From: a virus | IMG/VR virus record: IMGVR_UViG_3300015263_000627 | Length of the DNA stretch: 64,000 nucleotides | Direction: 5' to 3' (one strand) | Part shown: positions 5,188 through 46,287 of the stretch, one piece after another | How positions within the stretch are numbered: the stretch's first letter is position 1 | Layout of the letters: the number at the start of each line of letters is the position of its first letter | Notes under the pieces: model-generated | Told to the model about the DNA's origin: nothing | The model's database searches: none | What the model saw: only the letters and a program-made list of their open reading frames with translations | Program-made: the position numbers and the translations under genes

Positions 5188-5856
5188 ATGCAATTAACGC
5201 CGCGAACGTTGGCTATCCTGAAAAATTTTGTATATTTAAATCCCGGGATTGTTTTTAAACCCGGGATAGAAATCAGTACAGGAACGGTAACCATGGATGT
5301 GGTTGCCTTGGCGCAGTCAGAAAACAAATTTATAAAACAATTTGCTATTTCTGACCTTTCCCAATTTTTACAAGTAATGTCCTCATTTTCTAATCCTGAG
5401 TTGGAATTTGATGAAAAGGTCCTTTTTATTCGGGAAGGGGAAAAAGAAATTCGTTATACTTATGGGGATGAACAAAGCATCAAAACTCCCCCCGGCAAAT
5501 CCATCAATATGCCGAAAATTCTTGCATCATTTTCCTTGACGGAATCCGAGCTAACAGGATTGACCCGGATAGCAGGTGTTATGCATTTTACTGAAATTGC
5601 TATTGTTAGTGATAAGAAAAAATTGACCCTGCAAGCATTGGATATGAAAAATCCCACCGGGAACATCTATAAACAAAAATGCACTAATGGGGAAGGAACA
5701 AGCAAATTCATTAGTGCCTTTGCGGCTGAGAAAATCAATCTTCTAATGTCAATGGATTATAATGTAACAATAGGCAAGGGAGTTGCCGAGTTCAAGGGTA
5801 AGGATGTTACCTATTGGATTGCTCCGCAAGCAAAGTTTTCAACATATGAAGATTAA
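5188..5856 (+). CDS. 45: Sliding clamp gp45
   Basis: TLAILKNF..NPGI, FAISDLSQFL, YWIA; precedes gp44/gp62. Confidence 0.93.
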   Translation: MQLTPRTLAILKNFVYLNPGIVFKPGIEISTGTVTMDVVALAQSENKFIKQFAISDLSQFLQVMSSFSNPELEFDEKVLFIREGEKEIRYTYGDEQSIKTPPGKSINMPKILASFSLTESELTGLTRIAGVMHFTEIAIVSDKKKLTLQALDMKNPTGNIYKQKCTNGEGTSKFISAFAAEKINLLMSMDYNVTIGKGVAEFKGKDVTYWIAPQAKFSTYED

Positions 5857-7787: not shown

Positions 7788-8046
7788 AAATGAAACTGAT
7801 AAACTTTTGGCAGCATTCGCAGGCTTGTTTTTGCTTCCATTTATATTGTTCTTTGCTACGATAATTGGAACCGTAGCAGGAGCAATTGGAGGATGGGCTG
7901 TTGGTTTATTCTATGGGGATACTATTCTTTTTATTCTGAACCAATTGGGTGTCCATGGAGTAACCATGGGACAATTCGGAGCCTTTTTGGGATTTGTGGG
8001 GGGATTTTTCAAATCAGTATATATGTTTAGAAATCCTAAAAAATAA
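7780..8046 (+). CDS. Hypothetical membrane protein
   Basis: Gly-rich hydrophobic helices. Confidence 0.6.
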   Translation: MAENETDKLLAAFAGLFLLPFILFFATIIGTVAGAIGGWAVGLFYGDTILFILNQLGVHGVTMGQFGAFLGFVGGFFKSVYMFRNPKK

Positions 8047-8555
8047 TGAATTTTCGAAAAGCTAATCTGGACGATATTGACGATATCCTTCGTTTGGAAA
8101 GACTTGGTTTTGGAGAGCATCGATTTTCTCGTAATGCCCTTCGAAACCAGTTGAAATCCAAGAGCGTTGATGTTTTGGTAGCCGAAGATTTCAAAACAAT
8201 AGGATTTACTAAACAATATAGTAATTCTAAATTTAGTATTGTTCCATCCAAGGTTTTTAGAAGTGAAAAATGTATTGGATATGTAAGTGTTTTCTATAGG
8301 TCCAATAGTTCCAAGGCTCTAATAGCCTCAATTACGGTTGATCCAGCTTATAGACATAAAGGAATAGCCACAAAATTGATGGAAAAAGCTATAATATATG
8401 CTTATGACCGGGATATTACCCAAATCAAGCTACAGGTAGCCAAAACCAATACCAATGCTATAAAGATAAATACTAAGTTCGATTTCAAAATTGAAAAAAC
8501 ATTATCGAATTATTATGGTAAAGGAAAATCTGCTTACCTGATGGTCAAGAATTAG
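8046..8555 (+). CDS. GNAT (RimI-like) N-acetyltransferase
   Basis: IASITVDPAYRHKGIATKLM acetyl-CoA motif; LQVAKTNTNA; NYYG. Confidence 0.85.
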   Translation: MNFRKANLDDIDDILRLERLGFGEHRFSRNALRNQLKSKSVDVLVAEDFKTIGFTKQYSNSKFSIVPSKVFRSEKCIGYVSVFYRSNSSKALIASITVDPAYRHKGIATKLMEKAIIYAYDRDITQIKLQVAKTNTNAIKINTKFDFKIEKTLSNYYGKGKSAYLMVKN

Positions 8556-9534: not shown

Positions 9535-9945
9535 ATGAATGAAACTGACAGTTTATTTCGAGGTTATGGAATTGAAGTTATCCTACCTGACGATCAAGCA
9601 TTTCTAAAAATCCGAGAAACATTACAACGTATTGGCGTTGCTTCCCGTAAAGATAAGACTTTGTATCAATCTGCTCATATTCTACATAAACAGGGACAAT
9701 ATGCGATTCTACATTTTAAGGAATTGTTTGCTCTGGATGGAAAGAAAACCGATTTTTCGGAAGATGATCGCCAACGTCGAAACGCGATTGCGTCACTTTT
9801 GGAAGAATGGAATTTGGTCAAGATTAAAAACCCTGACCTAGTAATTGACAAGGCTCCGATGAGTCATATCAAGGTAGTCCGTTACAAGGAAAAAAACGAT
9901 TGGGTTTTAAAGTGTAAATATTCCGTAGGAAGGAAAAAAGTCTGA
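9535..9945 (+). CDS. regA: Translational repressor RegA
   Basis: FLKIRETLQRIGVAS, YQSAHILHKQGQYAILHFKELFALDG, RRNAIASLLEEW. Confidence 0.96.
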   Translation: MNETDSLFRGYGIEVILPDDQAFLKIRETLQRIGVASRKDKTLYQSAHILHKQGQYAILHFKELFALDGKKTDFSEDDRQRRNAIASLLEEWNLVKIKNPDLVIDKAPMSHIKVVRYKEKNDWVLKCKYSVGRKKV

Positions 9946-10012
9946 TGGTCTTGGGATCGCCACGGCTTCTAATCTGTATGGCAGACGGGTTCGAATCCCG
10001 TATCAGACGCCA
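9940..10012 (+). tRNA. Atypical tRNA / tRNA-like RNA (loop CUUCUAAU; degenerate Arg-UCU or 4-nt UCUA anticodon)
   Basis: 7-bp acceptor GTCTGAT/ATCAGAC + G + CCA; T arm ACGGG-TTCGAAT-CCCGT; reduced D arm; 8-nt anticodon loop. Confidence 0.65.
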
Positions 10013-10110
10013 ATTTAAGAGGACAATAAGATGATCAGATAGATGCATTAGGGCACCACCTTTTACTCTCCAAAATAAATTCAACCAAATTTATAACAAA
10101 GGAGAGTAAA

Positions 10111-10500
10111 ATGAAAGATTATCTTAAAACAAAATGTTGTTCACTGGCAGAAGAAGCCAAAATTATTCGCAGACTTGAACGTTCCCGTATCAAAAAGGGA
10201 CGGCGAGCCGCGTCATTAGGTAAAACCGAGGCGGCAAATTATCACTATTCAGTCTTATTCGGATTGCGCGACCATCGCACTAGAGATGTGCGACAGGAAT
10301 CTCGTCATTCGAATTTGGCGTATGGTTTTATAAAAGGTCGCGAATATAATGAAATTGAACAGTCGGCTTTCAAACAACCAAATTGGAAACGTGTTCAAAC
10401 ATTAGTGGAAAAATATGGCGAGGGGGATAAAACAATCCTACTCGAAAATTTTGCTACGTGGAAAAACAAGGCTATCGTTTCATTCGAAAAGAAAGCCTAA
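10111..10500 (+). CDS. Conserved basic hypothetical phage protein
   Basis: GGAG RBS; LKTKCCSLAEEAKIIR, VRQESRHSNLAYGFIKGR. Confidence 0.75.
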   Translation: MKDYLKTKCCSLAEEAKIIRRLERSRIKKGRRAASLGKTEAANYHYSVLFGLRDHRTRDVRQESRHSNLAYGFIKGREYNEIEQSAFKQPNWKRVQTLVEKYGEGDKTILLENFATWKNKAIVSFEKKA

Positions 10501-45807: not shown

Positions 45808-46287
45808 ATGAATCCAATACTATATCTACTAATGCGTAATGATATTCCGAGCATGAACCCGGGTAAGCTTGCGGCTCAAGCTGCACATGTTGCCAATGCT
45901 TTCGAATATGAGTTCAATAAGAGTGGTTCAGCCAAGAAAAATCTTGGTAAGCTGTATAAGGCATGGAAGAACCAAACCAAGCAAGGATTTGGAACAACCA
46001 TTTGTCTTGGAGCTAATGAAGATCAGTTTTTGTTTCAAGGAAGAAATCTTGGCAATGGTTATTTGAATGGATGTTTTTCGGGAGAGGTTTATGATCCGAC
46101 CTATCCTTGTTCTATTCCTATTGAAGTTGCGGATTATTTGAATCAATCTAATTTGTCTCAACAAATCATTTTTAAGGAAGATTCAGCTATTTTTCTTCGA
46201 AATGAATTGGTTGGAATGTATGTCTTTGGAGACAAGGAAAATGAGGAAGTTCAATTTCTTGTTGGTGGTTTGGAGTTATATCCATGA
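45808..46287 (+). CDS. Peptidyl-tRNA hydrolase 2 (Pth2)-like protein
   Basis: LYLLMRNDIPSMNPGKLAAQAAHVA matches Pth2 N-terminal motif; W...GFGTTICL; G...L.L end. Confidence 0.7.
   Translation: MNPILYLLMRNDIPSMNPGKLAAQAAHVANAFEYEFNKSGSAKKNLGKLYKAWKNQTKQGFGTTICLGANEDQFLFQGRNLGNGYLNGCFSGEVYDPTYPCSIPIEVADYLNQSNLSQQIIFKEDSAIFLRNELVGMYVFGDKENEEVQFLVGGLELYP

Follow-up and report, generated by a model that had tools for sequence, protein, structure and literature searches.

A compact tRNA with an eight-nucleotide anticodon loop and a matched leader: a probable four-base translational switch in a T4-like phage

The DNA analyzed here is a 64,000-nucleotide (nt) stretch of the virus record IMGVR_UViG_3300015263_000627 (the window, whose numbering is used unless a contig or locus is named). 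It is part of a complete 181,157-bp T4-like phage genome with 38.6% G+C and direct terminal repeats. At the locus of interest a compact transfer RNA (tRNA) begins 3 nt ahead of the TGA stop codon of regA (9943-9945), which thus forms tRNA nucleotides 4-6, within the 5' acceptor strand. The tRNA is followed by a very short leader open reading frame (ORF), a hairpin and a gene of a large uncharacterized family, here called X (Table 1). Comparison with related loci suggests that this tRNA probably decodes a four-base codon in the leader and, in doing so, gates the translation of X.

Table 1. Features of the regA-tRNA-leader-X locus (window coordinates).
Feature	Coordinates	Strand	Basis or description
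regA (translational repressor)	9535-9945	+	Pfam PF01818, E 2.3e-40; phage regA matches
Compact 73-nt tRNA with 8-nt anticodon loop	9940-10012	+	Sequence; conserved position with compensatory changes; RF00005 15.9 bits
Leader Shine-Dalgarno (SD) sequence AAGAGGA	10017-10023	+	Sequence; SD-led start also found by script; 7 nt before AUG
Leader mini-ORF AUG AUC AGA UAG + A	10031-10043	+	Sequence and SD-led leader finder
+1-frame ORF, no start codon of its own	10044-10109	+	C-I-R-A-P-P at 10044-10061, 15 further codons, TAA
Hairpin 5' arm UUUUACUCUCC, anti-SD strand	10061-10071	+	Starts at last base of second Pro codon
Hairpin 3' arm GGAGAGUAAAA	10101-10111	+	Spans SD and first base of the next gene's AUG
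Gene X, predicted to be gated, 129 aa	10111-10500	+	All-helical prediction; large uncharacterized family

The ends of the tRNA are perfect. The 7-bp acceptor stem pairs GUCUGAU (9940-9946) with AUCAGAC (10002-10008), the T arm (9985-10001, ACGGG-UUCGAAU-CCCGU) has a 5-bp stem and a 7-nt loop of the UUCRANY type, and G73 (10009) is followed by an encoded CCA (10010-10012). The D hairpin (9947-9958, GGUC-UUGG-GAUC) has a 4-bp stem and a 4-nt loop, the 8/9 connector is absent, and the variable region is only 2 nt long (AG). The anticodon stem has 7 bp and a UA bulge, pairing GCCA-CGG (9959-9965) with CUG-(UA)-UGGC (9974-9982). It closes an 8-nt loop (9966-9973, CUUCUAAU) with the layout C-U-UCUA-A-U, in which the four-base anticodon UCUA occupies 9968-9971 and the closing pairs are G-C, G.U and C-G. 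The element thus departs from the canonical cloverleaf in its connector (two nt), D loop (7-11 nt), anticodon stem (5 bp), anticodon loop (7 nt) and variable loop (4-5 nt), and its anticodon loop fits the N-U-NNNN-R-N form of quadruplet-decoding and +1 frameshift-suppressor tRNAs. These observations bear out an earlier note on this DNA, which had described a 73-nt tRNA across the regA stop codon with an 8-nt loop, a perfect acceptor stem, T arm and CCA, a connector-less 4-bp/4-nt D hairpin and a bulged anticodon stem. ARAGORN reported no tRNA in the window, and an Rfam scan left the element uncalled in both gathering and E-value modes. The single-sequence fold is not significant against shuffles (z -1.6). 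The tRNA therefore had to be judged by comparison. An exact 26-mer covering the T arm and acceptor had zero matches in IMG/VR, and a blastn comparison with cultured phages matched nothing beyond generic T-arm sequence.

Relatives with the tRNA were found through a protein-index search with RegA and contig look-ups, at RegA identities of 67-83%; among 160 loci from IMG/VR and JGI metagenomes with RegA at or below 70% identity, no tRNA follows regA. An 8-nt-loop tRNA occupies the same spot in L161-163 (RegA 83% identical), L172 and L175, and also in L170 and L171, which have no leader. It stands directly after regA in L161-163 and L175, and one small ORF intervenes in L172. The acceptor stems are unrelated in sequence yet paired (GUCUGAU, GAGCGUG, GCGCGGU, GGGCGGG), and T-stem pairs also show compensatory changes. 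Across the acceptor and T stems of five regA-linked copies (window, L161, L170, L171, L172), 98% of cells are paired and 8 of 12 pairs have compensatory double changes; none of 500 shuffles reached the observed compensation, and slid controls were at most 55% paired. Two body plans carry the enlarged loop, the compact one (window, L170, L171) and one with a normal-length D arm (L161, L172).

In every regA-linked copy the anticodon loop has 8 nt and the form N-U-UCUA-A-N (L161, L170, L171, L172, L175), its size in L161 and L175 resting on the better stem and the motif frame. The three loop-closing pairs co-vary (CGG/CUG, AGG/CCU, CGG/CCG, UGG/CUA). By this comparison, the covariation check named in the earlier note, the tRNA is under selection and conserved rather than decaying. 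A recent pseudogene is refuted because the 8-nt loop and the pairing persist while the acceptor stems have changed; the relatives keep this loop where that reading would place a canonical tRNA-Arg(UCU). The evidence contradicts the note's proposal that shape, not decoding, is selected, since no part of the molecule is better conserved, or co-varies more tightly, than the anticodon loop. In L170 (552-980) and L171 (318-746), the regA frame enters the tRNA by 31 nt and stops at the UAA of the anticodon loop (CUUCUAAU and AUUCUAAA, respectively).

The leader AUG lies 18 nt after the CCA, and the quadruplet UAGA (10040-10043) lies 28 nt downstream of the CCA end. UAGA is retained in L161, L172, L175, L190, L203, L213 and L232. 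Lacking its own start codon, the +1 frame can be entered only via a four-base step at UAGA; its TAA stop lies 1 nt ahead of the AUG of X. Related leaders have the same organization: L161 reads AUG ACC UAG-A and continues as CIRAPP, L172 reads AUG UCU UAG-A and continues as CIRGPP, and L175 reads AUG UUG UAG-A and continues as YPRGPP. Conservation is lacking in the 0 frame, and the last sense codon differs from leader to leader (AGA, ACC, UCU, UUG). In the +1 frame, the leaders differ at third codon positions or in the Arg codon family used; the synonymous changes in L161 and L172 involve AGG/AGA/CGU for Arg, GCA/GCG and CCA/CCC. Comparison shows the +1 frame to be under selection at the peptide level.

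What the +1 frame preserves is an R-A/G-P-P core in which the Arg and both Pro residues are kept (RAPP in the window, L161 and L177; RGPP in L172, L175 and L176). RAPP and RGPP are known ribosome-arrest cores (PMC10951233, PMC12992588), and among stand-alone cores they are the strongest known, context-tolerant and EF-P-resistant, with RSPP and RDPP partly permissive or active (PMC12992588). The predicted nascent chain at arrest has about 9 residues, and a signal sequence is absent. The phage genome reads normally under code 11. In a crude genome-wide TAGA scan we identified no other credible UAGA-dependent gene, so the tRNA seems to be dedicated to the adjacent leader. Two long +1 continuations from that scan were rejected as antisense "shadow" frames encoding nonsense peptides, and a search with the leader pattern TAGATGCATWMGNGNNCCNCC gave two chance matches only.

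The arrest motif adjoins an 11-bp hairpin over the ribosome-binding site of X. The fold of 10056-10113 has an energy of -14.9 kcal/mol (z -7.45), and the whole leader has a z-score of -4.0. The SD sequence pairs with the arm adjoining the Pro-Pro codons in all ten modules that were folded, with z at or below -2.4 in eight of them; by this comparison the SD-hiding hairpin is conserved. The minimum-energy fold of the leader also contains an outer 9-bp stem between 10028-10036 (AAGAUGAUC), in the start region of the leader, and 10117-10125 (GAUUAUCUU), in X codons 3-5. This stem could hide the leader AUG or could be due to chance.

The same arrangement of tRNA, leader and X also occurs away from regA (L176, L177 and IMG/VR loci). 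An alignment search recovered X homologues at 80 loci in IMG/VR, where a single-sequence search had found none. R[AG]PP lies within 260 nt upstream of X at 30 of the 80 loci, and ARAGORN assigns anticodons cta, tca, ttca or tcta to many of the X-adjacent tRNAs. Our own tRNA scanner and the SD-led leader finder, with manual reading of L172, L176 and L183, yielded 27 modules in three combinations. Eight have an 8-nt UCUA loop, a leader stop in the context UAGA and the Pro-Pro motif in the +1 frame. Fifteen have an 8-nt UUCA loop, UGAA at the leader stop and the motif again in the +1 frame. The remaining four have a 7-nt CUA loop, a leader UAG followed by C or G, and the motif in the 0 frame. For example, L176 combines the 8-nt loop CC-UUCA-AU with a leader ending in UGA-A and FARGPP in the +1 frame, and L177 combines the ordinary 7-nt loop CU-CUA-AA with the leader AUG CUG UAG and QARAPP in the 0 frame of that leader. 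Thus, comparison across phages shows that anticodon, codon and frame co-vary.

Many of the module tRNAs are 66-69 nt long and, like that of the window, combine a reduced D arm with a long anticodon stem. Because the quadruplets equal U+AGA and U+GAA, we suggest that the UCUA and UUCA anticodons derive from Arg-UCU and Glu-UUC tRNAs, with A37 drawn into pairing. In a tree of X, two UCUA groups each adjoin a different UUCA locus: the clade of the window (support 92/85) and a separate pair (93/81). Several coordinated switches of anticodon and codon are likely, of which the tree forces only two. At L214 (816-960) the 3' end of the tRNA is not CCA; the leader still ends in UGA-A, with RGPP in the +1 frame.

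X itself is predicted to form a long helical hairpin and a small helical bundle (AlphaFold2, pLDDT 95). No match was found in Pfam, PHROGs or the PDB, and fold and sequence searches were uninformative about it. A profile search places X in a family of 3,585 representative clusters, and its homologues usually adjoin suppressor-type tRNAs. This constant company suggests that X may act in readthrough, termination or the handling of stalled ribosomes. Two homologues belong to cultured phages. In Agrobacterium phage OLIVR1 (L258, MT234338.1 40274-40918) the homologue is gp84, annotated as "putative structural protein", with a tRNA annotated as Val directly upstream; in Stenotrophomonas phage DLP_5 (L259, MG189906.1 49873-50342) it is DLP05_071, directly followed by tRNA-Sup-CTA. 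Some predicted X-family proteins are extended at the N terminus, by 70-80 residues or by about 28 (P0137, P0141, P0147, P0153, P0170, P0218). These extensions may be leader frames fused in frame, as with the +1 frame in L176, or real extra domains.

We propose that X is controlled by an arrest-peptide switch whose gate is a dedicated quadruplet-decoding tRNA, and we put the probability of this reading at roughly 0.75. When the leader UAG is read by release factor 1, translation would terminate and X would stay silent, with its ribosome-binding site paired in the 11-bp hairpin. If instead the charged tRNA decodes UAGA or imposes a four-base step in some other way, the ribosome would move into the +1 frame and make M-I-R-x-C-I-R-A-P. 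Arrested at Pro-Pro, it would occupy the 5' arm of the hairpin, and the freed SD would allow X to be translated. In this translational switch the tRNA would serve as key and the leader as lock, and the switch would sense that the phage's stop-plus-one tRNA has been made, matured and charged and outcompetes termination by release factor 1. Since arrest would keep the hairpin open, an inefficient decoding event could be amplified. The four-base step may involve A-site pairing of all four bases, or a shift during translocation as proposed for SufB2. We infer charging, four-base decoding, arrest, SD unmasking and the function of X.

Among the options listed in the earlier note, a +1 suppressor with a UCUA anticodon reading UAGA gains support from the leader UAGA and from the covariation of anticodon, codon and frame. 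The degenerate Arg-UCU tRNA survives at most as ancestry (UCU plus A37 gives UCUA); as a degenerate gene it fails, the 8-nt loop having been kept. More broadly, and with somewhat less assurance than for the window itself, we favor the view that phages naturally use four-base pairs (UAGA/UCUA, UGAA/UUCA and perhaps others) that arose from Arg-UCU and Glu-UUC tRNAs. Many would be carried on D-arm-reduced mini-tRNAs working on bacterial ribosomes, and they would serve as orthogonal switches, through R-A/G-P-P arrest, for an X family that probably acts on termination, readthrough or stalled ribosomes.

Other explanations share part of this evidence. The tRNA might act on the leader by RNA-RNA pairing, in the manner of a T-box with UAGA as "specifier", and so alter its fold or block termination. 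The adjacency of tRNA and leader and their probable co-transcription would suit such contact, and direct pairing would likewise yield anticodon-codon complementarity and covariation. It does not predict, however, that the complementary 4-mer invariably terminates an SD-led mini-ORF, that the motif lies in the +1 frame with 8-nt loops and in the 0 frame with 7-nt loops, or that the +1 peptide is kept through synonymous changes. Rfam found no T-box, and we noticed no NCCA-pairing element by eye, without a dedicated search; we regard this explanation as very unlikely. We give an equally low standing to a shift made by the host at UAG-A, whether tRNA-Arg(UCU) binds AGA out of frame or the ribosome slips at a slowly read stop as in prfB, with the phage tRNA having another job such as reading AGA or amber codons. 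A normal Arg or Glu tRNA could indeed bind in the +1 frame, UAGA being U+AGA and UGAA being U+GAA, and some module tRNAs are called by ARAGORN as CUA (L161, L175) or Glu-UUC. Against a host-made shift, the 4-mer of the adjacent tRNA tracks that of the leader (UCUA with UAGA, UUCA with UGAA), and modules with a 7-nt CUA tRNA instead have the motif in the 0 frame and a fourth base other than A. P-site slippage is not a conserved feature either, given the variable codon before the stop.

Two further explanations leave the leader out of account, and we consider them less probable again. The tRNA-like shape could be a processing signal for RNase P or RNase Z, a stabilizing element at the 3' end of the regA messenger RNA, or a nuclease decoy. 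RNase P cleavage of the co-transcript would take off the regA stop codon, regA enters the element in L170 and L171, and the phage encodes an RNase P RNA. None of these roles needs an anticodon 4-mer matched to a neighboring leader, and the module occurs away from regA in other phages. For the decoy of anticodon nucleases, or of CCA or aminoacyl-tRNA synthetase sensing, raised in the earlier note we found nothing in support. The least probable account is a decaying tRNA-Arg(UCU) pseudogene left by a tRNA cluster that moved, with an unrelated leader. It draws on the sub-threshold results in ARAGORN and Rfam, on the partly degraded appearance of the L170 and L171 copies, and on distant regA relatives that carry tRNA-Arg(TCT) 1.2-2 kb downstream of regA. 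The persistence of the 8-nt loop and full pairing despite wholly changed acceptor stems is at odds with decay, as are the retention of a matched UAGA leader and the same design next to X in unrelated phages. A tRNA-Pyl identity was also rejected: the 8-nt loop presents UCUA in place of a CUA anticodon, and the 181-kb genome has no PylS (TIGR02367).

Several observations weigh against the proposed quadruplet switch. All of the evidence for it is comparative. The tRNA scores 15.9 bits with RF00005 against a cut-off of 29, it lacks the usual D-arm features, and tRNAs with a reduced D arm are not known to function on bacterial ribosomes. In L170 and L171 the tRNA is kept, partly degraded, in the absence of the leader and X; the T loop there is a degenerate AUCGUUA, and in L171 the 3' end is UCA, not CCA. 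ARAGORN reads L161 and L175 as 7-nt CUA tRNAs. In many UUCA tRNAs a Glu-like 7-nt fold equals the 8-nt fold in closing pairs, and loop size in these ambiguous cases likewise rests on the better stem and the motif frame. The match between loop and stop is imperfect at L214, where AUUUUAAA faces UGAA with a U.G at the second codon base, and five CUA-tRNA loci (L202, L216, L218, L234, L240) have no Pro-Pro motif by our heuristic. The tree of X is weakly resolved, so that the number of independent switches is at least two and poorly bounded. Finally, an 8-nt loop can occur without four-base reading, as in yeast mitochondrial tRNA-Thr(UAG), which reads triplets (PMC7609411).

In the wider genome, the genes upstream of the tRNA are, in order, the clamp-loader genes 44 and 62, a GNAT gene and regA. 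The GNAT-family acetyltransferase gene (8046-8555), with the clamp-loader genes on one side and regA on the other, is also present in the contig of the nearest relative. The other 25-30 tRNAs of the genome form a single cluster across the contig ends, in which no canonical tRNA-Arg(UCU) was found. This cluster, outside the window, contains a bacterial type-A RNase P RNA (RF00010, 139 bits, E 8e-46; C1:3348-3679) and three tRNA-like genes (C1:4212-4290, 5299-5377 and 5533-5614) with the anticodon loops CUUCGAA, CUUCUAA and UGUUCUAA. The three have a normal acceptor stem, T arm and CCA; no D arm is found in the normal position, and 3' of the anticodon arm lies a stretch of 23-25 nt that contains a D-loop-like GUAxUGG motif. 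Two of the three, at 35.6 and 34.6 bits, score above the tRNA cut-off of Rfam, and a distant relative (L023:5461-5539) shares this layout, with UCU as its anticodon. ARAGORN also missed two odd tRNAs outside the window, at C1:488-559 and C1:178188-178308. The D arm of one, which is Asp-GUC-like, combines a 6-bp stem with a 4-nt loop; the second, a 121-nt tRNA scaffold, carries a large insertion within its anticodon arm. Elsewhere in the window, a gene resembling peptidyl-tRNA hydrolase 2 (PTH2; 45808-46287) scores 25 bits, with only the N-terminal part of the profile aligned; it lies in a tightly packed operon and has no leader.

If the proposed switch is real, evolution has put four-base decoding, known otherwise from laboratory suppressor mutants and synthetic biology, to deliberate use. 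It would represent a new class of translational switch with a tRNA as its input. Its tRNAs would be natural, optimized scaffolds for quadruplet decoding, some of them unusually small, and useful for genetic-code expansion. The module also offers a first handle on a very large uncharacterized phage protein family that accompanies suppressor tRNAs, and OLIVR1 and DLP_5 are cultured phages with related modules that can be used experimentally. Natural quadruplet tRNAs or codes have been stated as not known (PMC9094753), and we found no published description of such a module in the full-text literature searched.

The closest counterparts of the tRNA are the frameshift suppressors sufD (tRNA-Gly), SufB2 (tRNA-Pro) and SufJ (tRNA-Thr) and the engineered UAGA-reading quadruplet tRNAs, which share an 8-nt loop created by an extra nucleotide and a four-base match of anticodon and codon (PMC9094753, PMC4764823, PMC4238358). 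UCUA/UAGA is in fact a working engineered four-base pair in Escherichia coli (PMC9094753, PMC4764823). Those tRNAs, whether mutant or designed, come from the laboratory and rescue frameshift mutations, whereas the phage tRNA is wild-type, conserved, encoded beside its target, compact and apparently regulatory. In its missing connector, small D loop, longer anticodon stem and short variable region it resembles tRNA-Pyl and mammalian mitochondrial tRNA-Ser(UCN), in which the connector is missing or short (PMC7609411, PMC4267643). The yeast mitochondrial tRNA-Thr(UAG) mentioned above, with its natural 8-nt loop and triplet reading, is a caution rather than a precedent (PMC7609411). Stop-codon-recoded phages also encode stop-reading tRNAs of their own (bioRxiv 10.1101/2021.08.26.457843; PMC9523058). 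Those suppressors read triplets and serve many structural and lytic genes, in contrast to the single predicted UAGA-dependent gene seen here, within code 11, by the crude scan.

The leader has likenesses of a different kind. ApdA, ApdP, ApcA and SecM (RAGP) also have an R-A/G-P-P core upstream and a stalled ribosome positioned to melt an SD-hiding hairpin (PMC10951233, PMC12992588, PMC7897499). Known arrest leaders are "monitoring substrates" of 50-170 residues whose stall is relieved by secretion or insertion, while the phage leader has about 9 residues, its motif can be reached only through a stop (or stop plus one), and its input would be a tRNA. Synthetic UAG-readthrough switches likewise make output conditional on a suppressor tRNA at an early stop (PMC6412442), and differ in being engineered, triplet-based and without an arrest-peptide amplifier. 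A final parallel is prfB, the gene for release factor 2 (RF2), where an autoregulatory +1 frameshift at CUU-UGA-C involves P-site slippage, an upstream SD sequence and a low level of RF2. Termination and the +1 step compete at an early in-frame stop and so determine gene output, as proposed here (review PMC5009743), although prfB has no dedicated tRNA and no arrest peptide. What would be new in the phage module is that a matched leader is joined to a four-base tRNA both wild-type and dedicated, a combination that sets it apart from each of these systems.

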